From a virus (lineage: Duplodnaviria; Caudoviricetes), in the IMG/VR virus record IMGVR_UViG_3300042691_031247: a stretch of 64,000 bases of DNA. One strand, written 5' to 3'. The position numbers and the translations under genes are program-made. Of the stretch, positions 17,630 to 56,925 are shown piece by piece (within the stretch, counting starts at the first letter, position 1; each line of letters starts with the position of its first letter). The notes below the pieces were generated by a model. The model had not been told where the DNA came from and searched no databases. It saw only the letters and a program-made list of their open reading frames with translations.

Positions 17630-18451
17630 CTAAAAAGTGCTTTGTGTGTATTGCTTGTCTAACATCGCTTGAATTTTTGCTGCGCGTTGGCTTACGGCGC
17701 CGGGCGTAATGTTTAATCGGCGAGCAATCTCTTGCGTGCTCGTTTTGCGCCGGCCGTTGCGCCCCAGCGTCATGTCAGCAACAAGCTTGTCGATCGGACT
17801 CAGATCTTCGTAGACAAACTTAAACCACGCGTCCGCCGCTCGCGTGCTGTTCGGAATTGTGCTCGCGACGTCGCCGCCGTAGCTTTCTTCGTCCATAACT
17901 TCGCGTGTTGTCATGCCTTCAGATACAGGCTGATTGAACGCACGAATCTTTTGAATACGGCGCGTAGACAACCCGGTGGCGTCCGCGACTTCATCGTCGG
18001 TCGGCTCGCGGCCAAGCTGGTCACGCAGTTCGTTTTCGCTCTCGTTGAGTCGCGTGTAATCTAACCCTACTTGTTCCGGGATAGCGATAATGTTTTGATT
18101 CTGGGCCGATACCCGCCGGAGACTCTGCAGCTGCGACAGAAGATGTGTGCGCACATTCCCGCGGTTGGGGTCGTACGTGTCGAGCGCTTTTAACGCCATA
18201 AGCTTGGCTCGCGACCGGATTGTCGGGCTGGCGGCTTGCCCGGCGTAACTCATCACCGCGGTGTCGATTACAGGCTGAAGTGTCTGCAGCAGCGCCGAGC
18301 TGGTCTCGGGGGTTTTGTGGGCGGCCCACTGCGGGTACAGACTGTCAAACTCCGGGCTGACGCCGGCTGGTTTTTTAGCTGAAAACGGTGGCGGGGTGTC
18401 GCCCAGTATGGACGGCATGCCTTGCTGCTTTTTGTTATTTATATCGGTCAT
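17630..18451 (-). CDS. Phage sigma70-family RNA polymerase sigma factor
   Basis: Region 2 (ALKALDTYDPNRGNVRTHLLSQL), region 3 (LRDQLGREPTDDEVADATGLS) and region 4 HTH (STQEIARRLNITPGAVSQ). The likely start at 18451 overlaps the hub gene stop (ATGA). Confidence 0.9.
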   Translation of the reverse strand: MTDINNKKQQGMPSILGDTPPPFSAKKPAGVSPEFDSLYPQWAAHKTPETSSALLQTLQPVIDTAVMSYAGQAASPTIRSRAKLMALKALDTYDPNRGNVRTHLLSQLQSLRRVSAQNQNIIAIPEQVGLDYTRLNESENELRDQLGREPTDDEVADATGLSTRRIQKIRAFNQPVSEGMTTREVMDEESYGGDVASTIPNSTRAADAWFKFVYEDLSPIDKLVADMTLGRNGRRKTSTQEIARRLNITPGAVSQRAAKIQAMLDKQYTQSTF

Positions 18452-31237: not shown

Positions 31238-34200
31238 TTAGACAACTAAGTGCAGCTCAATGTTGTTGAGCGGCGCCGGGACAGTCAGATCAAGCACAAT
31301 CTCGATACGATCCTTAAGCAGCGGATGAATCTGCAGCTTACGAATCGCGCCGTCGATGAGTTGCGAACCCAGCTCCTCGGTATTACCGTTGCCCTTGAGG
31401 AAATCGATAATCGCCGTGACCTCGTAACGTAACCGACGTACCATGCCCGGCTGCGCGTTCGTGCGGCCGATGAACGGCTTCAGACGGCGGTAGAACAGGT
31501 ACGACATGCTGTCGACGTTACGACGAATCATCTCTTCGCGGCGGTTCAGATCGAGGTTGTCGGTCGTCAAGGCGTGACGCGTGTGCGGCGTGCCGTCCTT
31601 GTCTTCCGTCACGATCCAGACGCCGGCCTCAGCCATGCGGTTAAGCTGGGTTTCGTTGAGGTACTTGTAGGAGCGCGAGAAGTCGTCGAACCCGGCGACC
31701 TCGACGTTCGTCAGCGGCTGGTGGGGCACCACACCGGAGACGAGACCGGCCAGAGCGGCCGCGAGGTAGTAACCGGGCTGAATCGTGCCGGCTTCGCCGA
31801 CCTGATCCGGCCACACGGCGCACACGCGACGGTTCGAAAGCGAACCGCCTTGTTGTGCAACGTCTTCAACGATCTCGTTGCGGTTGCGGTTATGCCAGAC
31901 CTCGACACGCTGCGGAACTGTAACAGCGGCGTCAGCGCCGGAGTACAGCAGCAGGGTCGATTCCGAGATAACCTGATCAACCACGTACTCTTCGTACTGC
32001 TCCTCGCCGAACCCGTCGACCGAGTAGTTGTAGCGCACGATATCGCCGGGACGTACGTCATTCGTGATGAAGTAGCCGTTGCCCGACGTGACCGTCAGCT
32101 TCGTGTACTGCGTGTTGGTGGCGTTCGGGTCGTCGGAGAGCGTGGCAAGAACCGGATCGTCGACCGTCTCGCCAAGCACACCTTCGATGTTAACGCCTTC
32201 ACCAACAACCTTCACGACCGGAACCGCCTTGAGGGCGAAGAAGCCAGCCTTCCAGTTGTTTGCGTACTCGTTCGACTCGCCGCCAATGTGCGCAGCCCAC
32301 AGGTTTTGAATCCTGCGGTCGAACGTCATCGGAACGAGGTTATACATGTCGTCGCGACCCTTGATGCGCTCAAGCACCTGCACCCACTTGTCCATGTCGA
32401 CACCGAGCGAACGACCCTCTTGGTCGTACTTCTCGGGGTCGGCCACGGCGGTGTACTTCACTACGGTGCCGTTGCTGTTAGAGAGCGCCTTGTAAACGCC
32501 CCACTTCAGCGGGTTATCAGGATCGAGCTGGCCCTTGATTTGATCAAGGTCAGCCACGTCGCTGATCGAGTTGACCTGATCGGCCAGCTCAGACAGCCAC
32601 TCGCGGTACTCGACGTACACCTTGCCGGAGATAACCGGCAGGGGCTGCTCGGCGCCAGCGCTTGTCCACTCGGGGTGGTAAGCGACGATGCCTTCCTGTA
32701 CGCAGATCTGGGTGTCTTCGTACCAGAAGTTGGTCATCGGGGCGAATCCGATCCGATTCTTCGAGATCTGGATGTTGTCCTTGATGAACAGCTTAAGGTC
32801 CATGTCTTCGCCGCTGATCAGCTGGCAAGTTGCCGTAGCTGTCACCGCGCCGGGGCCGGACGGCGGCGCCGAAAGCGTGACAGTCGGGGCGCTGGTGTAG
32901 CCGGCGCCACGATCCGTCACAACAACGCCGACAACCATGTCGTCGTTTTCGCCTTGGATGCTGCCGAGCACGGCATAACCGACGGCAGTACGAGCCTGCA
33001 CAAGGTTGCCTGTCGGAGCCGAGAACGTCACAGTCGGGGCGGCGCCGTAACCCGAGCCAGCATTCGTGATGCTGACCGGACCCACCTTGTCGACCGGCGC
33101 GCCGTCCTGCGTGAGCAGTACGGTCGGGAGGTCGTCGCGGAGGATAAGCTGGCGGACCGGGCCGGCCTTGCTGGAGTTAACAGTGATGTACCACTTGTCA
33201 CCCTTGCGGAGACCAGCAACAGCGAAGTTGTCCTCTTGGTCGGTGGCGCCAAGGAAACGAACCTTTACGCCATTCGTGCCGATCGCTACGGAGATGGCGT
33301 TGCCGCCAGCGCCGTCGCCGACAACTTCGGTCGGGCCGGAGAAGTCGAGGCCCTTGACCGTGCGGACAGTGATCTCAGGAAGCTGAGCCCACGTGCCGCC
33401 CTTGGTGCACTCGATGACGTAGGTGTCGTTCTTGGTGCCAGCGTACTTGCCAAGGATGTCAACCGCACCCTGCACGCCGTTTACCGACTCTTCAGTCTGG
33501 TACACGCCGTCAGCGTCCGAAACAGCCTTGACCTTTTCGTACGTCTGCTTGACGTCGAACTTCCACTTCTGACCGACAACAAAGTTATCAAGACCAGTTG
33601 TCGTGAAGCGCACCGAGAGGCCGCGCGTGCCGATGAACGTCACGCCGTCGTTGTCGTCAAAGTCGTTCGGCTGAATTTCAGCCTGATCGTCTGTGCCGGT
33701 TCCCGACACAACGCGCAGACGCGCGGCGTTGCAGCCGGCAATCGTGCTCTTGATGACTTCGACGTAATACTCTTCTTCAACTGCACCGGAGACAAGACCG
33801 TCGTAATCATTGGCGCCTTCGTCTTGGGCGCCAAGAACGGTCACTGCAACTGCGTTATCAACACCCTCGATCTGCGTAACAGTTACGTCAACGCCGTTGG
33901 CGCTTTCGGCTGTGTAGCTGTCTTGGTTGTTAACGTCAGCAGTGGCGGGCAGAATGCGCGACGGAACAAGGTCGCTGGCAAAGCCGGTTACATATGTCTC
34001 AAGCACAGTCTCGATGCAGTCGTTGTCGGCGCTCACAGTGCGGAGCTGAACAACGTCGCCGAGCTGAACGTCACGATCGAAGAACACGCTCGAACGCGGG
34101 TACGCAGCGCCGTTCGACTTGAACGACAGTGTGCTGGACTGCACCCAGTTGGTCTTGCCGGGAACGGCTGTAATCGTCGTGTCGCTCTCGCCCATGTTGT

Positions 34201-47198: not shown

Positions 47199-49580
47199 TT
47201 ACGCGTTAGCGATGGCGCCAAGATCAATATCCTGCGCGGCTTCTTCGGGATACGGCTCGATGGTCTTTTGCTTGAGGAACAGAATGACGTCGCCAAGCAT
47301 TTCAAATGCGTTGCGCAGCGAGTCTTCCAGTTCCGGCATGTCGGCTTTACCGTAACGTTCGGCAAACCGGTCACCGTGCCAGTAGAACATGAACAGGATG
47401 CGGCCCAACTTGTCGAGGCCCTTGGTTAGTTCGCCCATGTACCGGTCGACGAGCGAGTCGTCGCGCACGGCGCGCAGCATGGCGCCCACCATCGCGGTGT
47501 CGAACACTTCGCGCTGGCCGCTTTGCGCGGCGTCGATCACGGAGCGCACGTCCCGCTGGTCGAGGAGCGTGTTCGGGTTGTAAACGCTGCGGTCGGTTTG
47601 ACTGGCACTCATACCCGGTACTTGCACCGCGGTATCAATGCCGAGCTGCGTTGGGATACTTGTACCCATGATACTCTCACCGCCCATCACGGGGCCCGGA
47701 TCGGTCGGAGCGGAGGGTGCGCCGTTGATCATCATCGGGCCGCCGTACGGATCAGCATACTTAACGCGGCACTCAAACTTGCGCTTGGCGGCCGCTTGTT
47801 TCAGGATCTCGCGAGCAGCTTGCTCGCGCAGACCGTGGTGCTCCACCAGCGTAACGAGCGCCTTGATGGGGCTCAGGTTAGCCTCTTTGTTAATCGTTAC
47901 CGACGAGCCGTTGTGATAAACAGTCAGAGCAGCGGTCTTTTGCATGAGCGCCAACTGGGCGTCAACAAGGTTGCCGGGCATCAGGGCCGGCGGATCACTC
48001 TCACCACAACCACATGCGCCCTGATCTTCCGCGATCTCGTCATCATCTTCGCCTTTGCTCACCTTGAGCAGCTTGAAACCTTCCGGCACAAAGATGTCGC
48101 CCATGCTCGCGCGCAGGCTGGCACCTTTCTTACCGTTGAGGTGAATACGGACACCGTCGCGCCACTTGTCGTAGTTCAGCGGGTCGGTATAGCAGCTGCC
48201 GCAAATGCTGCCCTTGGGCGGATACTTCGAGTGATCCTCAAGGTGCACTTCATAAACAGTGCTGCCGTTGCTGTCGCCGTATTCTTTGATCACGCGGAAC
48301 GGCGCTGTTGTGTCGCCGCGCTTGCTGAGCGCAATGTAGCGGGCGTCTTTACTCGGGACGCTGTTGGCTTCCGGCAGGCCGTTAAACCACGTATCAAACT
48401 CTTCGCCCTCGATCCGGGCCAGCGCAAAGACTTGGTCGGCGCGTGTATTGAGCCAGTTGCGCGCACCGTCAACGCGCACGACCGTGATGAAGTTTTCACG
48501 CTTAGCGGCGCCTTGCGGATGTACAGCCACGTAGCAGCGCTCAATGTTGCCCGGCTTGACCAAAATTTCATACAAACCGCTTTCGGTCGGATTGAACAGC
48601 TTCTTTTCGACCTGAATGTGATACGGGATCGAGACGTTGTCGCGGTCACGCTCGTCTTGAATCAGCACGCCGTCGCGCAGCAGCTTTTCTTGATCGTCTT
48701 CGCTGTAACCAACGGGCGCCTTGGTCTGCACCGTGACGTCGTATGTGATAATTGTCAGGCCCTTAGCGGCGGCCGGCTCTTTGGGAGCCTCAGACAGCAC
48801 ACTGGCAATCTTTGTGTTTGCGGCAACTTCGCGCGCAGAGGCTTCAGCAATAGCCTGCTTGACGATATCTAAACCGTGAAACTCGTCGACGGCGGCGGCT
48901 AGTTGCGGCGCGTGTTTGCACGTGTTAATAAGCGTGCCAATCACTTCGCGCCCGGCCTGCTTCAAAAACGTCTGCAGGTCTAGCGCTTCGCCCATCTCCT
49001 TAAACGCCTGCGCTGTGTTTAACGTAGCGCTCTTGGCGAGAGCCGGCATCGCAGCCGTCATCATCTCTTTGAGTGTGGGCTGCGCAGAGCCAAACTTAGC
49101 CGGGCTGCGCGAAAGCTGCGTAAAGTCGGGCTGACGTTGGCCCATGCCCGACAGGTTGCGCTGTACGCCGCTACCCAGAATGTTGGGCTTGCGGTTGATC
49201 AGGTAGTTAATCCAGTTTTCCTTAAGCGGTACGAACATGTCCTGATTTTTGATATACAGGAGTTCGTGGCCTTTGAGGTCGCCGTTGAGGAAGAACACCG
49301 GCGCATACAGCCAGTTAGAGCCGACCTTGAACGCAAAAACACCAACCGCCTTGGTGTTTTCCCGGTTGCGGTCGAGCAGCTGGAAACCAATTTCGTGGTC
49401 GAGTAGCTTGGGCGCTGAATCGCGCAGGTAGGCGTGAGCCAGATTGCTGAACGACTGCTCGAAGGAGGTGTCGTCGCCTTTACCGCCTAAATCGGCGTAC
49501 TTGGTCTGGGTGCGGTCATACGACTGCATCACCTTCAGCCAATGCTTAACAGACGACTCTTTCGCTTTTTTGTTATACAC
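47199..49580 (-). CDS. Large hypothetical head-module protein (~793 aa)
   Basis: GTG start behind CATGGAGG. Beta-rich N-terminus (AVGVFAFKVGSNWLYAPVFFLNG), helical C-terminus, several KxA motifs. Confidence 0.7.
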   Translation of the reverse strand: MYNKKAKESSVKHWLKVMQSYDRTQTKYADLGGKGDDTSFEQSFSNLAHAYLRDSAPKLLDHEIGFQLLDRNRENTKAVGVFAFKVGSNWLYAPVFFLNGDLKGHELLYIKNQDMFVPLKENWINYLINRKPNILGSGVQRNLSGMGQRQPDFTQLSRSPAKFGSAQPTLKEMMTAAMPALAKSATLNTAQAFKEMGEALDLQTFLKQAGREVIGTLINTCKHAPQLAAAVDEFHGLDIVKQAIAEASAREVAANTKIASVLSEAPKEPAAAKGLTIITYDVTVQTKAPVGYSEDDQEKLLRDGVLIQDERDRDNVSIPYHIQVEKKLFNPTESGLYEILVKPGNIERCYVAVHPQGAAKRENFITVVRVDGARNWLNTRADQVFALARIEGEEFDTWFNGLPEANSVPSKDARYIALSKRGDTTAPFRVIKEYGDSNGSTVYEVHLEDHSKYPPKGSICGSCYTDPLNYDKWRDGVRIHLNGKKGASLRASMGDIFVPEGFKLLKVSKGEDDDEIAEDQGACGCGESDPPALMPGNLVDAQLALMQKTAALTVYHNGSSVTINKEANLSPIKALVTLVEHHGLREQAAREILKQAAAKRKFECRVKYADPYGGPMMINGAPSAPTDPGPVMGGESIMGTSIPTQLGIDTAVQVPGMSASQTDRSVYNPNTLLDQRDVRSVIDAAQSGQREVFDTAMVGAMLRAVRDDSLVDRYMGELTKGLDKLGRILFMFYWHGDRFAERYGKADMPELEDSLRNAFEMLGDVILFLKQKTIEPYPEEAAQDIDLGAIANA

Positions 49581-49661
49581 GGCCAGCCTCCATGCTGCGC
49601 TCAAAATTAGACACAGTATTAATTTACTGCGTCGAAGTCTCTATATCCTACAAAAACAGGC

Positions 49662-51542
49662 TCACGGCTTCCACCCGCTTGTTGTGCCTGTTACGCCGAA
49701 CTGCTCGCCTTGGGCTAGAGCGGGCACATAACTGCTGCCCGCGGTATCGCTACTTAGGCCGCGTTGCACGCTATTCATAAGCCCTTTTTCTTGATACGAG
49801 CCCAGCATGCGGGTCATCCAGTCGGGGTCATTTGAGATATTCGCCATACCTCGCACCATTTCGGGCTGGAACGGCGGTGGTTCTTTGTGGGCTTGAATTG
49901 TCTTCACGCCGTATTTATTCAAATTGGTCAGCACGTTTTTACCGATCTTTGTGCCAATTGAATAGTGCAATACCGGTTTTTCAAGGTAATGCCCGGTTAA
50001 TGTGTTAGGCGCGGCTGATACGCTACCTTCACGCGGCGTCCAATTACGTTCAATTGCTGAGTAGGGCACTACATCGTCTGGCGCATAATCGCCGTACTCG
50101 TCATTCAAACGCACGTGATTAACAAGACCGCGCGCAAGTAGCTCGATGTTCCGTCGGTGGGCTGTAATGCCGCTATTGCCCATGACCTGCCGCATCGCCT
50201 GCACAAAGTAACGGCGGCCTTCTCCTACCCCTTTGTGCCGGACAATTTCAGCTGGATTTGGCATACCGTCGGATATGACGTCGCCGGCTTCAAGCTCGTC
50301 GCCTTTTTTAACAGCAAGCTTTCGCTCGGTCGGAACGTAGTGATCCTGCCCGTTAATCTGCACGTAATAACCGCCCTGCGGCGCTGGCCGAACTTCTTGT
50401 ACTCGCCCGTCAAGCTGCGAATGCGCTGCGCCGTCTGGATATTTTTTCGGGACCTGTACCAGCGCGTTAAGCGCTTTAAAGCCAGAAATCGCGCCCGCGC
50501 CACCAACGCCGCCCGAGTGCTTCGAGCTGATCTGGCTTTGCGTAACCGGCTCGGACAGCGCCTGTGCGGCGGTAATGCCTACGTAATCGCCGATGGGCGG
50601 TAGGCGCCCCTTCTCCCGGTAACCAACGTCTTTGGCGTAAACGCCGCCATCGCCCGGGCCGCCGACAATCGGACTGCGGACTAAGATATCTTTAGCGCCG
50701 CTTTCTTTCAGGTCTCGCAAGATCTTGGGCGTCAGAATTGTATTGCGTTTATACGGCCCGACAGCGCGAGCGAGTAACGCACCTTCGTTGTCTGGATCGT
50801 CTACGTCGGTGGGGTAGCCGCGCTCTTCCGCGGTCATGCGCCGCTCTTCATCGTCGTTATCATCGTCATCTGCCGTAACGAGCAGTCGGTGCGTCATCTG
50901 CGCAAGCTGTTTACCGTAGAACCCCGCGTCGGCGGTGGCCGTCTTCAGATCGATAACGCCCTTGCGGGTACCGAACGCGCCGGCAAAGTATTCAACCGGG
51001 CGCAAACCTTGGCTGTAGCCGCGCAACACCGGAATTGGAATCGGGTCGCCGCGGTGGTCGAGATACTGCATGTCAGCGCCAAGAATCGAGTTTAACTGAA
51101 ACTTGTTACCGACGCCGGCGCCAGCAATTTGATGCACCAGCGGATTATCTTGACCTTCCGCTTCTTTGTACACTTTTTCGAGAAGTTCTTGCTGCGCTGC
51201 TTGCGCAAGTTCGAGGAGCTTGATGTTGCGCTGTTTTTCGTCAAGCCGGCGATCGGCAAAGATGTCGCGCATCTGATTTTGCACACGCAGTTGCACGTGA
51301 CGTGCCGCAAGCGTCGGGCGAATGTCTTTAAGCCCGAACGATAAGCCGTTTGTCGTATACCCGGCGTCGCGGCCGATGTCGTGAAGCCGCTTCATGACTT
51401 CGCGGTATTTTTCTGGATGCGTTTTGGCTAGCTCAGTCGCGACACCGGACATTGTCTTTTTCGTCAACACACGATCGTAGTCGCGCATCTCGGGCGGCAA
51501 CGCTTCGTTAATCAGGAGTTGGCCGAGCGTTGTCTTCAGCAT
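49662..51542 (-). CDS. rpoC: Phage RNA polymerase beta' subunit, C-terminal half (funnel, bridge helix, trigger loop, jaw)
   Basis: Contains TTLGQLLINEALP, GLRPVEYFAGAFGTRKGVID..TADAGFYGKQL (bridge helix), GITAAQALSEPVTQ......HSGG (trigger loop) and HRRNIELLAR. Confidence 0.93.
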   Translation of the reverse strand: MLKTTLGQLLINEALPPEMRDYDRVLTKKTMSGVATELAKTHPEKYREVMKRLHDIGRDAGYTTNGLSFGLKDIRPTLAARHVQLRVQNQMRDIFADRRLDEKQRNIKLLELAQAAQQELLEKVYKEAEGQDNPLVHQIAGAGVGNKFQLNSILGADMQYLDHRGDPIPIPVLRGYSQGLRPVEYFAGAFGTRKGVIDLKTATADAGFYGKQLAQMTHRLLVTADDDDNDDEERRMTAEERGYPTDVDDPDNEGALLARAVGPYKRNTILTPKILRDLKESGAKDILVRSPIVGGPGDGGVYAKDVGYREKGRLPPIGDYVGITAAQALSEPVTQSQISSKHSGGVGGAGAISGFKALNALVQVPKKYPDGAAHSQLDGRVQEVRPAPQGGYYVQINGQDHYVPTERKLAVKKGDELEAGDVISDGMPNPAEIVRHKGVGEGRRYFVQAMRQVMGNSGITAHRRNIELLARGLVNHVRLNDEYGDYAPDDVVPYSAIERNWTPREGSVSAAPNTLTGHYLEKPVLHYSIGTKIGKNVLTNLNKYGVKTIQAHKEPPPFQPEMVRGMANISNDPDWMTRMLGSYQEKGLMNSVQRGLSSDTAGSSYVPALAQGEQFGVTGTTSGWKP

Positions 51543-51543
51543 G

Positions 51544-51783
51544 TCACGGCGTCCAGACGATGTTTTGCAACGATTTCGGCTTGAAGTCGGTTACAACAAC
51601 TGTTTTATTGATACCCAGCGCGCGTAACATTGGATGAAAATCTTTTTCACCCACGGTTGAATAAACAACCGCCTCGTCGACTTGAATGGCGACGAATAGC
51701 GGGTTACCTAGATCGTCCTCGACAACGACGCTGTGCGATTTCTGCTCAGCGGGTTGAAGATTGTGCTGCGTTTTAACCAGCAT
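51544..51783 (-). CDS. Small hypothetical protein between the RNAP genes
   Basis: 79 aa, beta-rich, Cys-free. Coupled to both neighbours. Confidence 0.6.
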   Translation of the reverse strand: MLVKTQHNLQPAEQKSHSVVVEDDLGNPLFVAIQVDEAVVYSTVGEKDFHPMLRALGINKTVVVTDFKPKSLQNIVWTP

Positions 51784-52501
51784 TGTCCGCAATACTCCGA
51801 ATCATGGCGGCGATAGCATTTGCTTTGATCTGCATTGCCGTGGGCGCATTCGGATTCGAGTAGCTGGGGCCGAACGGCCGGCCGATTGACGACGCAGACT
51901 TTTCAGCGCGGTCCCACCACGCCGCCTTAGACGGATCACCCTCTGGCGGTGCGGCGTTCGGCGGCATCGGGCCGCCCGGGGGCATCGGACCACCCGGCGG
52001 TTGCATACCGGCCTGCGCGTTGGGATCTTGCGCGGGAGGCGCCATCGGGCCGCCGGGCAGCGCGGTTTCAGCCGGCGGGGCGCCGGTTGTTCCGGGCGGG
52101 AGCACAAGTGACTCTGGCGGAACTTGCACACCCATCGCGTTCATAATGGCCGTGAGCTGCTGCTGCATGTTGTACAAGCGATAGTCGAGCATCTGCATCA
52201 TCTGCTCGGGCTTTAGTTTTTGCTGCGTGCCTGCAGGGGCTGCGCCCGGAGCGGCGGGTGCGGCGGGCGCTGCGGGAGGAGCAGCGGGCGGCGCCATACC
52301 CATAGCCGCAGGATCCACTGGCGGTGCAGCTGCTGCAGCAACAGCAGACGGATCGGCCGGCGGTACAGCCCCCATGGCGGCTGGGTCAACCGGCGGAGCA
52401 CCACCAGCAGCAGCGGGATCCACCGCCGCTCCGGGCACTAATGCGGATTTTTCAAAGCGCGCCTTCGCCAGCGCAATGAGTTCGGGGTTTACCGTGAACA
52501 T
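51773..52501 (-). CDS. Pro/Ala-rich low-complexity protein with a central helical segment
   Basis: 242 aa behind CATGGAGG. PAAP/PPGGPM tracts flank MMQMLDYRLYNMQQQLTAIMNAMG. Contains EKSA twice. Confidence 0.65.
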   Translation of the reverse strand: MFTVNPELIALAKARFEKSALVPGAAVDPAAAGGAPPVDPAAMGAVPPADPSAVAAAAAPPVDPAAMGMAPPAAPPAAPAAPAAPGAAPAGTQQKLKPEQMMQMLDYRLYNMQQQLTAIMNAMGVQVPPESLVLPPGTTGAPPAETALPGGPMAPPAQDPNAQAGMQPPGGPMPPGGPMPPNAAPPEGDPSKAAWWDRAEKSASSIGRPFGPSYSNPNAPTAMQIKANAIAAMIRSIADNAG

Positions 52502-52521: not shown

Positions 52522-55500
52522 TTACGTATTATCTTCCACAATATGAACCGGGGTGTCCACCTCTATTTCGCCGCGCCGGTACGCCTGCATGGCATCCTGC
52601 TTGCTGCGAAACACGCGTGGTTTAGCTTTTTTACTGATTCGACTGGACGCTAAGTATAACCCAGTCTGGTAGTCTTTGTTTGGGACGTAGTGCGCCTTGA
52701 ACGTCGAAGCTGCAAACAGGTTCTTACTCGGCAGCATCTTTTCCACGGCTTCTTTAGCGGCGTCTTCGGTACTTGGGACGTGATACTGCATCGCGTCGCC
52801 GTCGAAGTCAGCGCCGAACCCCTTCGTGATTACGGGGTTTACTTCCATGACTTTGTTCTTAGTTAACTTGGGGTAAAACGCCATCATGCCGTAACGGTGA
52901 AGCACGGGCGCGCGGTTAATAACAATAGGCCGCGACGACATCTGCCGATCTAGCTCGGCGCCAGCTTCTTTCGTCTTGTCTTCCACGGCCTGCATCGCCT
53001 GCATGCGCGGAAGACCCCTGCGAACAAGACCGCGCACAACGAACGGCTTGTAAATATCCCACGCTTTCTCTTCCGGCAACGCAACCTCGTCCATGTCGAG
53101 ATCGGGATTCGGTGTAATGACCGCGCGCCCCACGAGGTCGACCGTGGAGCTAAGAAGCTTACGCTGCACGGTGCCGTACTTTGGCGAGTTACCGAACACG
53201 TGCCGCAGAAAACCTTTCACATTGCGCTCAACGTTTTTCGGCTGCTGCGGCTCACCCAGTCCAGTGACAGCCTTCATCGAGTCATACACGCTCAGGCGTT
53301 CGTCGCCGTAATCGGCCAGCGCGCCAGACGCCTCTTTCAGTGTGTCGTTCGCATCAAGCAGTTCTTTGTACAGATAGTTTGCGTCAGCGACGAGCGGCAG
53401 CTTCTTACTGCCCATCGTGCTCACGGGGCGGAAGAGTGGCGGCAAGACGGGGACTTTACTAATCATCCAGTCTTTGGGGTGCACGCCGGTTGTTTCCGCG
53501 CTCTTTAAGAACCCCAACCGGCGCACGGCAGCGTCGCGAAGCGTCTTGCGCCCGGATTTAATATCTAAACGCGCCTGCTCGATAGCCTTTGGTAGGTTAA
53601 TTCGTTCAAGCGCGGCCTTGATCGCCGTGGGCCCTGTTTTGTCGCCCAGCTGTTCGCGACCAGCCAGCACGCCGCGGAACTGCTTTTCCGTCATCCCCAG
53701 TACGCGTCGAATCGGGTCTTCCATGACCGGATTCGGCAGCGGCTCGTGCAGCGTGATCTTGCTCCACCTGTTACCGCCGTGGCCGCCCGTCAAAGCCTCA
53801 TCAAATAAACCGCCGGCAATAGGCTTGAGGCGCCCCTTCCAGTCAACGGTCTCAGAGCTTTTCAATTCACGCGGACCGGCCAGCTCGTCGATGTCTTTGT
53901 CGGTCATGGCCATGAGGTTCGACCGCGTGCCTTTGCGCACAACGTTAATACCAGACGCCCTAAGCTGCCCGACGAACTTCTCGTATACGTGTGGCACCTT
54001 GGGTAGCGGCGGAGTGTAGCCGGCCATGAACTGCGACCAGTATTCGGGATTTGCTTGGCCGCGCACCATCTTGGCGTCGCGAATAACCTTACCGGCGCCG
54101 TGCGAAAGCAGCGCGCCAAGATCCAGCATGCCGACGCGCTTGGCGCCTTCGCTGCCGCCCTTCGCCGGAGTGCCTTCGGCTGTATATGCACCCATCGACC
54201 GGCCCTGCGCTTTTGATTCGCTGGTATGGTGCAGCTTCATGAAAAACCGGCTGCCGGTCAGCACACCGCCGATTTTCCGCCCGGTTTCTGCGTCGATGAC
54301 GTCTTCGGTATCGGACAGCCCGTGCTTTGCCAGTTCTTTCTGCGCAAACTCAATGAGGTCGTTTTTGTTATCAAAGTCCTTGAGCTTGTACGGCGAGCCG
54401 GTCTTTGCTGCGACCTTGCCTAGTGCGGCTTCAATCACCTGCGCCGGGTTAATACGGCTGATCAGACCCAGCGGCGAGACGAGCACTTCAAAAGGATTGC
54501 CGTCGCGGTCTTTGGGCATCTGGTCGTCAGGTACGATCTCTGCGACGACGCCCTTGTCGCCAAAGCGCCCGGTGAGCTTGTCGCCAACGTCCATGGGCGC
54601 TTGGTTTTTAACGACAACGCTCACACCCTTCTTGGTGTGCATAACGTCGGTCACGATACCCGGCGCATGATGCTCCCACGTGATTGTGTCGTTTGTAAAG
54701 TTACCAGCACGCCCACGATGCACTTTGCCGTACACCGTGTCTTTCTTTTTGGCCACGAGCACGAGCGGGTCACCAAACTTGACCTCAGTACCTTTTTTAA
54801 TCGCGCCGTCGTCGTCAAAGTTGTCAAGATACTTTTTGTCGTACTCAGTCGGGAACAAACTCACGAACGCCTTCTTGCCAACGTGAGTGTTGTCGTCCCA
54901 CTCGGCTTCGTGCTGATACATGTGCTCAGACGTTAGCCGCTTGGATGCGGATTCAGAGATAACTACCGCATCTTCGTAGTTCTTGCCGCGGAACGGCAGA
55001 TAGGCTGTACGCAGATTCAAGCCGAGCGCTGCGCTGCCGTTTTGATCTGTAAAGTTCGACCGGGCGAGCAGTTGTCCGGGCTCTACCGTGTCGCCGGGCT
55101 TCACAATCGGCGTCTGGTGTAAGAACGTCTTACGGTTGTACGGCATTTCGTTATACAAATCGATCGTCTTCTTATTACCATCTTTGTCGCGCAGTACGAT
55201 GCCGTCAGGTGTGACATCGACGACTTGCGCGCGTTCGGTAGCCCGGGTGGCGCCAAGCTTTTCGCCCATCTCGTCTTCGTGCGACATGCTCTCGTCATCG
55301 GCCTTGGCGGATTGCAGCAACGGCGCCTCGGCGTTTACTAGCGGGAGCGCTTGCGTAAACATACGGCTACCCATGATCACGCGGTGGCCTTTGATCATGG
55401 ACTTAATCGGCACCATGTTGGATAACGTCGAAAACGTTGAATCCATGTTCGGCAGGCTGAACTGCGCCTCTTTACGCGGAACATACTTGAGCTTGCCGTT

Positions 55501-56925
55501 GACGAGCGCTGCCACCACGGGAAGTCCGTTATCTTCTTCGCCGGGAAACACGAGCGGCGTATCGGCCAGCTCTTGCGGCGTCTTGTACACCTTATCGCCG
55601 GTTTTCATATCAACAACCGGCGTATACACCTTGCCGTCGGAGCCCTTCATAGCGCCGCGGGCAAAGCGCATGTCAACACCCACCTTGCCGGATTCTGGCG
55701 TGCGAAGATAGTCGATAAACCCAAGGTGGCTGGGCTGCACAGAACGTGACTCGGCAGGCACGGCGTCCAGCGAGCCAATGCCGCCTTCGCCCATACGGGT
55801 CACACGCGTCTGGTGGTCAAAGATCTCCGCAGGATTAATTTCTTCTAAACTCGACCCCAGACCGCTGCCAATAAGCGCAGCTGAGATTGCCTTGTCGAAT
55901 ACGCCCGACGGAATGTGATCAATTGACTTCTTCGCCGTAGCTTTCCAGAGCAGCTTGTTAAGCGATTGGCGGTCTTTGGTAAAACGCTCGGCAATGAGGT
56001 CCTCCGGGCCGACGACGGACTGATACACCATGTTGTCTCGGTCGTCGCTCTCGGCCTCGCGGCGATTCACTGCGATTAATTTCTTAGTGATCGCCAGAAT
56101 CGTCTCCGGCGTCATGTTCTTGTATTCAGAACCCAGTGTGCGCCGGGTGACTTCCGGGTCGAGTTCGGTCTTGGCAAACTCGGCCGCGATCGCCTGCGCT
56201 TTGGCAATAGCGTCTGCGCCGGCAACTGGTTTGTTTACAAGGCGGGCGTAGATCTTGTCCATCGTGCCAGCATCGCCCTTCTCCATGTTGACGGCGGTGA
56301 TCTCATTGCCCCACGCTTTGCGGATGTCCTGATCTGACACGCCCATGGACTTGAGCAGCGGCATGAGCGGGATCTGCGCCTGACCAATGCTGATTTTGAA
56401 CACGCCGGTTTTGGGGTCGAGGAAGTACCGGTGCGAACGGCCCTTACCCGGTAGCGTGTTTACGTGCGCCTCAATCTCGCCGTTGTCTTTCTCGCGGGTA
56501 AACACGCCGGGGCGCAACCGCATCTGGTGCGCAAGGGTGTACTCGACGCCGCCGTTAACGAACGTGCCCGAGTCGGTGAGATACGGCACGTGGGCGATCG
56601 TGGCGCGGCGCTGGCCGACAGGCTGCCCGGTTTTGTTATCTGTAAGCGTCCACGTACCTTGCAGCCGGCGGGCAAGTGTCCCTCTGGAAAGGACAGCTTT
56701 CTTCTGATCTGACCTTGTGAAGCGCTCAGGTCCCGAATACCCGACGTCTTGCAGCTGCAACGTATACAGGTCATTCTGCAGCGGCTTGAGCCCCTGCGCG
56801 CTCGTAAGCGCCTGATTAAAAATGTTATCCCGCATCACGCCAACGTCGCCGAACGTGCGCATCGTGGGCGCGACCGGCGCGGGTGTCATCGGCGATTTTA
56901 AGTCGGGCAGTTCAGGGGTCGGCAT
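52522..56925 (-). CDS. rpoB/rpoC: Phage RNA polymerase: fused beta subunit plus beta' N-terminal half, containing the catalytic DFDGD
   Basis: Beta motifs RTPESGKVG, MGSRMFTQA, KNYEDA, GDKLTGRFGDKGVV and GAKRVGMLD. Beta' motifs follow: ETVDWKGRLKPIAGGLF, VLPPLFRP, LLSSTVDLVGRAVI, NRAPVLHR and GADFDGD (52795-52815). Confidence 0.95.
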   Translation of the reverse strand: MPTPELPDLKSPMTPAPVAPTMRTFGDVGVMRDNIFNQALTSAQGLKPLQNDLYTLQLQDVGYSGPERFTRSDQKKAVLSRGTLARRLQGTWTLTDNKTGQPVGQRRATIAHVPYLTDSGTFVNGGVEYTLAHQMRLRPGVFTREKDNGEIEAHVNTLPGKGRSHRYFLDPKTGVFKISIGQAQIPLMPLLKSMGVSDQDIRKAWGNEITAVNMEKGDAGTMDKIYARLVNKPVAGADAIAKAQAIAAEFAKTELDPEVTRRTLGSEYKNMTPETILAITKKLIAVNRREAESDDRDNMVYQSVVGPEDLIAERFTKDRQSLNKLLWKATAKKSIDHIPSGVFDKAISAALIGSGLGSSLEEINPAEIFDHQTRVTRMGEGGIGSLDAVPAESRSVQPSHLGFIDYLRTPESGKVGVDMRFARGAMKGSDGKVYTPVVDMKTGDKVYKTPQELADTPLVFPGEEDNGLPVVAALVNGKLKYVPRKEAQFSLPNMDSTFSTLSNMVPIKSMIKGHRVIMGSRMFTQALPLVNAEAPLLQSAKADDESMSHEDEMGEKLGATRATERAQVVDVTPDGIVLRDKDGNKKTIDLYNEMPYNRKTFLHQTPIVKPGDTVEPGQLLARSNFTDQNGSAALGLNLRTAYLPFRGKNYEDAVVISESASKRLTSEHMYQHEAEWDDNTHVGKKAFVSLFPTEYDKKYLDNFDDDGAIKKGTEVKFGDPLVLVAKKKDTVYGKVHRGRAGNFTNDTITWEHHAPGIVTDVMHTKKGVSVVVKNQAPMDVGDKLTGRFGDKGVVAEIVPDDQMPKDRDGNPFEVLVSPLGLISRINPAQVIEAALGKVAAKTGSPYKLKDFDNKNDLIEFAQKELAKHGLSDTEDVIDAETGRKIGGVLTGSRFFMKLHHTSESKAQGRSMGAYTAEGTPAKGGSEGAKRVGMLDLGALLSHGAGKVIRDAKMVRGQANPEYWSQFMAGYTPPLPKVPHVYEKFVGQLRASGINVVRKGTRSNLMAMTDKDIDELAGPRELKSSETVDWKGRLKPIAGGLFDEALTGGHGGNRWSKITLHEPLPNPVMEDPIRRVLGMTEKQFRGVLAGREQLGDKTGPTAIKAALERINLPKAIEQARLDIKSGRKTLRDAAVRRLGFLKSAETTGVHPKDWMISKVPVLPPLFRPVSTMGSKKLPLVADANYLYKELLDANDTLKEASGALADYGDERLSVYDSMKAVTGLGEPQQPKNVERNVKGFLRHVFGNSPKYGTVQRKLLSSTVDLVGRAVITPNPDLDMDEVALPEEKAWDIYKPFVVRGLVRRGLPRMQAMQAVEDKTKEAGAELDRQMSSRPIVINRAPVLHRYGMMAFYPKLTKNKVMEVNPVITKGFGADFDGDAMQYHVPSTEDAAKEAVEKMLPSKNLFAASTFKAHYVPNKDYQTGLYLASSRISKKAKPRVFRSKQDAMQAYRRGEIEVDTPVHIVEDNT

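Follow-up and report, generated by a model that had tools for sequence, protein, structure and literature searches.

The window analysed here is a stretch of 64,000 nucleotides from an uncultured phage of the Caudoviricetes (IMG/VR record IMGVR_UViG_3300042691_031247, 198 kb, 97% complete), and its minus strand encodes a multisubunit DNA-dependent RNA polymerase (RNAP) with an unusual catalytic loop. The plus strand letters at 52795-52815 are GTCGCCGTCGAAGTCAGCGCC, and their reverse complement, GGC GCT GAC TTC GAC GGC GAC, is translated into GADFDGD near the end of a long open reading frame (ORF). The loop begins with Gly at the place of the Asn known as N458 in the beta' subunit of Escherichia coli, which is usually called universally conserved and counted, for every multisubunit RNAP, among the three residues that recognize the ribose. 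The positions of the polymerase genes, their motifs and the other relevant genes are given in Table 1.

Table 1. Features of the phage RNAP and associated genes in the 64,000-nucleotide window (aa, amino acids).
Feature	Position	Strand	Details
Catalytic Mg-binding loop GADFDGD	52795..52815	-	Residues 1371-1377 of the 1467-aa ORF; Gly codon GGC at 52813-52815
NRAP motif	52906..52917	-	R1338, equivalent of E. coli beta' R425, the main 2'-OH discriminator; position from the sequence, role of R425 from PMC7862312
Fusion of beta with the N-terminal part of beta', 1467 aa (P0001)	52522..56925	-	Carries the catalytic loop; Pfam Rpb2_6 at residues 584-915, Rpb1_2 at residues 1315-1395
C-terminal part of beta' (beta'C), 626 aa (P0121)	49662..51542	-	Pfam Rpb1_5, E = 7.2e-24; aligns with Thermus thermophilus beta' 1049-1322
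Trigger-loop core TQSQISSKH	50517..50543	-	In the beta'C gene; aligned column by column with T. thermophilus TQLTMRTFH
Pro/Ala/Gly-rich low-complexity protein, 242 aa (P0122)	51773..52501	-	From the translation
801-aa protein	47199..49604	-	Directly downstream of beta'C; weak tblastn similarity to the gp218 region of phage Arash, gp218 being a virion protein
Probable sigma factor of the phage RNAP	17630..18472	-	In the baseplate operon; weak Sigma70_r2 match, E = 0.048

Residues 1100-1467 of the long protein aligned over 360 residues with solved bacterial beta' chains, covering beta' residues from approximately 184 to 560 (HMMER, E = 9e-47). In this alignment 'kgfGADFDGDam' was paired with 'tayNADFDGDqm', the Gly column being that of the Asn in NADFDGD (E. 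coli N458), and 'NRAPVLHR' was paired with 'NRAPTLHR'. The GADFDGD loop is not a chance string, because it is located inside a match to the Pfam family RNA_pol_Rpb1_2 (E = 9.6e-25), which scored 88.2 bits at a curated cut-off of 25.3 and was found again in the search of the whole genome. All three Mg-binding Asp (D1373, D1375 and D1377) were present, the frame was open and the other catalytic residues were intact. In the trigger loop, the equivalents of Q929 and H936 were preserved and those of M932, R933 and F935 were replaced by Ile, Ser and Lys, respectively, the consensus of the phage family being [TS]Q[SAG]Q[IL]S[SA]KH. A first-pass annotation of this DNA, made from the letters alone, had reported GADFDGD instead of NADFDGD, and both the codons and the alignment with N458 proved it correct in every detail. 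Its coordinates were also right, to which the strand, left unstated there, can now be added as minus, and the alignment with bacterial beta' bore out its description of a retained NRAP Arg and trigger-loop His next to an altered trigger loop.

Since the RNA_pol_Rpb2_6 domain (E = 2.4e-50) and RNA_pol_Rpb1_2 were both found in the same chain, the 1467-aa protein joins beta to the N-terminal part of beta' (beta::beta'N fusion). The features by which a multisubunit RNAP with two double-psi beta-barrels is recognized were present, namely the Rpb1_2 domain, the three Asp, the NRAP Arg, the Gln and His of the trigger loop and a beta partner. One feature of the beta' catalytic subunit, the Asn preceding ADFDGD, was absent, the residue at position 1371 being Gly. 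The Asn at the N458 position defines neither the fold nor the chemistry of multisubunit RNAPs. Only the RNA_pol_Rpb1/Rpb2 families of Pfam matched the 1467-aa protein at E ≤ 0.01, and no membership in the eukaryotic-type cellular RNA-dependent RNA polymerases (PF05183) was found. A single beta and a single beta' catalytic domain were detected in the 198-kb genome, and the T7-type RNAP family (PF00940) had no match in it, as was also the case in the control genomes.

The polymerase belongs to a very large environmental phage family in which Gly is the majority state. A word-indexed search recovered 1991 homologues, the best 120 of which (all with 79% identity or more in the beta' part) included 103 with Gly, 16 with Asn and 1 with Ala. 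An exhaustive search of representatives gave 7206 matches; the best 150 of them, one per 50%-identity cluster and 45-61% identical, all fell within the same phage family, and many contained inteins. In an alignment of 268 homologues, made after stitching out the insertions, the site was occupied by Gly in 186 sequences, by Asn in 60, by Ala in 12, by Thr in 6 and by Ser in 3, and all members of the subclade of the window's protein (P0001-P0022) had Gly.

The first-pass annotation had advised checking homologues for conservation and would have taken Asn in all close relatives as a sign of sequencing error, a situation opposite to the counts obtained. That the Gly reflects gene decay or a mistake in sequencing or assembly is indeed of negligible probability: apart from the prevalence of Gly among the homologues and the intact frame and catalytic residues, the exact 1467-aa protein was present on 10 contigs, the three occurrences listed each coming from a different sample. 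Among 63 related IMG/VR loci the codon at the site was GGC in 31, GGG in 9, GGT in 8 and GGA in 4 for Gly, AAC in 8 and AAT in 2 for Asn and GCC in 1 for Ala, and alleles with Gly and Asn may have identical flanking bases. Because the third base of the codon varies synonymously while the Gly stays, the residue is kept under purifying selection and is not an error. The Gly is thus a genuine and selectively maintained residue.

The distribution of the residues over the family was characterized by frequent switching at this position in otherwise frozen surroundings. When the 268 sequences were arranged in a maximum-likelihood tree, 65-66 parsimony changes were required at the site, which placed it at the 66th percentile among the sites of the region, compared to a mean of 75.6 and a minimum of 69 after label shuffling. 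R1338, P1340, D1373 and G1376 changed at most once each on the same tree, and the three Mg-binding positions were occupied by Asp in 250-266 of the 268 homologues. For 103 close full-length relatives (a clade with identities of about 80% and above) the tree was built with the site itself masked, and 9 changes were counted, 8 of which were flips between Gly and Asn at nodes with a support of 0.9-1.0, shuffling giving a mean of 15.2 and a minimum of 12. Within the 21-residue loop (residues 1366-1386) position 1371 was the only one varying freely in this close set, the other positions showing 0-1 changes. The nearest pair of proteins differing in Gly and Asn, P0031 and P0035, was 93.5% identical across the whole length.

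No compensatory change accompanying the switches was identified. The best covariation with the Gly/Asn state among approximately 360 columns of beta'N had p = 0.0066, and none remained beyond multiple testing, nor did the trigger loop covary, its variants TQAQISSKH, SQSQLSSKH and SQGQLSAKH each being found with both Gly and Asn. Within 100 bases on either side of the codon, 12 of 14 Gly/Asn pairs showed no more differences than expected and the remaining pairs deviated by no more than 2, but these pairs (IMG/VR) were at most 80% identical in DNA, too diverged to be informative on recombination tracts. A change from a Gly codon to an Asn codon takes two base changes. When read through the genetic code, the five observed residues form a connected network of single steps, GGY-AGY-AAY and GGY-GCY-ACY-AAY.

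The meaning of the Gly can be considered against what is established for the E. coli enzyme, in which R425, N458 and Q929 contact the ribose of the incoming nucleoside triphosphate (NTP) and R425 is the main determinant of discrimination against the 2'-deoxy substrates (dNTP) (Makinen et al., 2021, PMC7862312). The N458S substitution had effects of less than 5-fold, selectivity being about 4-fold lower at binding and slightly higher at incorporation, and the mutant was near wild type in processive assays (PMC7862312). The role in sugar discrimination that the first-pass annotation ascribed to N458 therefore holds with respect to the ribose contact (PMC7862312), but not as a strong effect, given the weak phenotype of N458S, the leading role of R425 and the retention of R1338.

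Taken as a whole, the best explanation, which we regard as probable, is a near-neutral, tolerated Gly in an ordinary DNA-templated RNAP, located at a labile site where the exchange would cause at most a few-fold kinetic change. The enzyme is a bacterial-type RNAP built of the beta::beta'N fusion and the separate beta'C and is the only detectable multisubunit RNAP of the phage. With the Mg-binding Asp and the equivalent of R425 intact, along with Gln and His in the trigger loop, it should perform ordinary DNA-templated RNA synthesis. Loss of the Asn side chain would remove one hydrogen bond to the ribose of the incoming NTP, and a shift of NTP affinity or sugar selectivity would be few-fold at most, because the equivalents of R425 and Q929 are present. 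The site would then occupy a small neutral network (Gly > Asn >> Ala, Thr, Ser) on which it flips repeatedly without compensation, and an effect of such a size is the likeliest and fits the free alternation of Gly and Asn. We infer both the size of the kinetic effect and the near-neutrality by analogy, the modest reading being favored because the published N458S effects were below 5-fold. The altered sugar selectivity or fidelity proposed in the first-pass annotation would accordingly shrink to such a few-fold shift, and the proposal is weakened by the alternation of Gly and Asn at up to 93.5% identity without compensation. The polymerase is probably packaged into the virion for early transcription, as judged from homology with the RNAP of the cultured phage Arash.

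Several points weigh against a near-neutral Gly. The published substitution is to Ser, not to Gly, and was made in a different enzyme background, and the phage trigger loop also lacks the equivalents of R933 and M932, so that the combined effects could be larger. The distribution is two-peaked, with Gly and Asn common, the single-step residues Ser, Ala and Thr rare, and two base changes separating Gly from Asn, a pattern which pure neutrality does not obviously predict and which leaves room for selection. The virion packaging, in turn, leans on a homologue that is only 32% identical.

The same pattern is what would be expected if Gly and Asn were alternative fitness peaks tuning how the hydroxyls of the incoming ribose are read, and the drivers of such an adaptive switch may be, for example, host NTP/dNTP pools, host-made chain-terminating analogues or inhibitors of the NTP site or the secondary channel. 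The scarcity of the intermediates (21 sequences with Ala, Thr or Ser taken together, next to 186 with Gly and 60 with Asn), the repeated flipping within a shallow clade (at least 8 times, although two base changes are needed), the position of the site as the sole freely variable one in a frozen loop and the contact of N458 with the NTP ribose (PMC7862312) are all in line with it. However, no co-varying residue was found either in the beta'N columns or in the trigger loop, the N458S effects in E. coli are small (PMC7862312), and in large phage populations, or by recombination between alleles circulating together, a shallow valley could be crossed even in the absence of selection; overall, an adaptive switch appears unlikely. 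A more specific version, in which the toggle recurs in an arms race over the nucleotide site of the injected phage RNAP and the flips track host defence, is more doubtful still. If true, one state would read the 3'/2'-hydroxyls of the ribose strictly, shutting out host-made chain terminators or deoxy-nucleotides, and the other would relax this reading, evading an inhibitor of the active site or secondary channel or coping with a different nucleotide pool.

Another idea of the first-pass annotation, that the Gly suits a modified DNA template or changes the template preference, is highly improbable. It may draw on the non-virion RNAP (nvRNAP) of phage AR9, which transcribes uracil-containing DNA and also lacks the Asn (S-G-DYDGD), but the recognition of uracil there was assigned to the promoter-specificity subunit gp226 (PMC9209446), and the N458 residue contacts the substrate sugar rather than the template (PMC7862312). 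Moreover, Gly and Asn alternate between near-identical phages, and GADFDGD is also found in cells, namely in CPR bacteria, Chloroflexota and DPANN-type archaea. Of the DNA-modification genes, neither the ThyA family (PF00303) nor TGT/DpdA (PF01702) had a match in the genome, other pathways not being included in the search. A near-neutral Gly in an ordinary DNA-templated enzyme remains the preferred reading.

The 801-aa ORF had no family match, but tblastn gave weak homologues in the gp218 region of phage Arash (locus L001, 21637-22068; E = 7.6e-5) and in Vibrio phage D181 (ORF 0273; E = 7e-7), pointing to a conserved virion protein with a link to the genes of the polymerase. The 242-aa low-complexity protein was placed exactly at the split of beta', between the two RNAP genes, where a small ORF was also present; it had no match in the Pfam and PHROG searches, and PHROGs likewise yielded no function for the genes adjoining the RNAP genes. 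Further away, the weak Sigma70_r2 match was located at 32855-32914 of the genome, corresponding to 18137-18196 of the window. Judging from the latter match and from the homology with the Arash RNAP, the enzyme is probably a sigma-dependent RNAP of the bacterial type.

Some other positions around the active site varied across the family as well. A1372 (52810-52812 of the window; A459 in E. coli) was Ala in 221 sequences, Met in 28, Leu in 10, Gly in 5 and Cys in 1; F1374 of DFDGD (52804-52806) was Phe in 228, His in 15, Tyr in 9 and Asn in 8; and the first residue of NRAP was Asn in 194, Asp in 30, Ser in 20 and Thr in 19.

The catalytic loop was also found to be a target of mobile elements. 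Approximately 50 of the 150 family representatives (within P0136-P0271, outside the window) contained an intein-like insertion of 200-550 aa exactly at the loop, at a point corresponding to approximately 52794 of the window, after which the chain resumed at '[DN]T.xxHVP'. Three classes were distinguished: insertions without Cys1 next to an intact DFDGD; loops of the type 'DFDGN|C...D|T', in which the third Asp was encoded as Asn; and loops of the type 'D[FYH]NGDS|C...hN|T', where Asn is encoded at the place of the second Asp. In phage PBS1 (LC680884.1, locus L090, ~226.7-227.6 kb) the frame of the PBS1/AR9 beta'N broke right after 'SGDYDG', with an endonuclease-like ORF coming next in a different frame, and in phage phiKZ (NC_004629, locus L093, ~50.1-50.8 kb) the gp55 exon resumed at 'ADFDGD' past a known intron. 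The same seven codons were thus targeted by inteins in the family of the window and by introns in two other families.

None of the papers in the library searched contained GADFDGD or related loop strings. The survey of Weinheimer and Aylward (2020) selected the NADxDGD motif and required beta and beta' to be separate subunits, neither shorter than 800 aa (PMC7481178), and with beta' divided between the 1467-aa fusion and the 626-aa chain and the motif reading GADFDGD, the polymerase described here falls outside the mReC criteria of that study (PMC7481178). Because of this combined filter on motif and length (PMC7481178), the whole fusion-plus-split family would have been skipped. Selecting on motifs such as NADxDGD thus overlooks entire lineages of viral RNAPs. 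A Gly-for-Asn loop alone does not point to a new mechanism. The polymerase is of a known kind, and its Gly/Asn-toggling loop is an undescribed variant, probably of modest functional consequence. Within the family, natural pairs of proteins with an identity of up to 93.5% are available for measuring the contribution of the Asn to sugar selection and fidelity.

In comparison with cellular enzymes, the phage protein is a clear homologue of the bacterial beta' (E. coli RpoC and T. thermophilus), with the NRAP Arg, the three Asp and the trigger-loop Gln and His in common; it differs in the exchange of Asn for Gly and of M932/R933/F935 for Ile/Ser/Lys, in the fusion of beta to beta'N and in the split of beta'. 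The seven-residue loop itself was found in cellular polymerases. A scan for the GADFDGD pattern with one genome per prokaryotic species, for which about 280 chance matches were expected by estimate, gave at least 120 matches; among the first 120 of them at least 8 were true beta' or A' genes, and most were probably due to chance (estimate). The 8 cases came from metagenome-assembled genomes (MAGs) of Saccharibacteria, Limnocylindria, Nanoarchaeota, Woesearchaeota (two MAGs) and Methanomicrobia, from a 3.7-Mb Chloroflexota chromosome and from an unclassified archaeon. In each of them the loop should belong to the sole RNAP of the cell, but the subunit architecture is ordinary and the Asn was lost independently.

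The loss of the Asn is not general to phage RNAPs, because it is kept in phiKZ, in Vibrio phages 1.031.O and Va2 and in Rhizobium phage RHph_Y65, which have the same catalytic core with NADFDGD or NADHDGD. The solved structure of the phiKZ nvRNAP gp55 (PDB 7OGP) reads NADFDGD; a 'TADFDGD' deduced from the raw phiKZ DNA was rejected, its Thr belonging to the known intron, and a Pfam search did not detect the phiKZ beta' domain. The nvRNAP of Bacillus phage AR9/PBS1, with the beta'N subunit gp270 (PDB 7S00/7S01), is an active phage multisubunit RNAP without the Asn, reading S-G-DYDGD, and the split in its beta' lies close to that in the beta' of the window. It is very distant, with an identity of ~20% to bacterial RNAP, and differs from the polymerase of the window by the lack of a bacterial-type sigma-like factor, by an unfused beta, by Ser-Gly instead of Gly-Ala and by the transcription of uracil-containing DNA. 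The paper on the AR9 enzyme described a DYDGD conformation like that of other RNAPs and an active four-protein core and made no mention of the missing Asn (PMC9209446).

The closest cultured relatives, about 32% identical, are Gp206 and Gp216 of Salmonella phage Arash (OQ632216; PMC10585845) and their counterparts in Vibrio phages D69, D148 and D181. In D181 (OZ196140.1, locus L087, 7899-13413) and D148 the fusion gene was annotated as two ORFs, 0263 and 0267, with a homing-endonuclease ORF (0266) between them, an arrangement resembling a mobile element or intron that interrupts the beta part; in D69 the gene was in one piece. Mass spectrometry of the Arash virion identified Gp206 as the most abundant protein and also detected Gp216 (beta'C), a sigma factor and gp218 (PMC10585845). 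Unlike the phage of the window, Arash has been cultured, and its RNAP was seen in virions. The Asn is also missing in this group, but Arash and D181 read AADYDGD, with Ala instead of Gly and DYDGD instead of DFDGD. In other respects the polymerases are alike: the trigger loop of the Arash group is of the same ..KH type without an R933 equivalent, and the phage of the window shares with Arash, D69, D148 and D181 the architecture of a beta::beta'N fusion of ~1500 aa with a separate beta'C of ~600 aa, encoded amid the genes of virion proteins.

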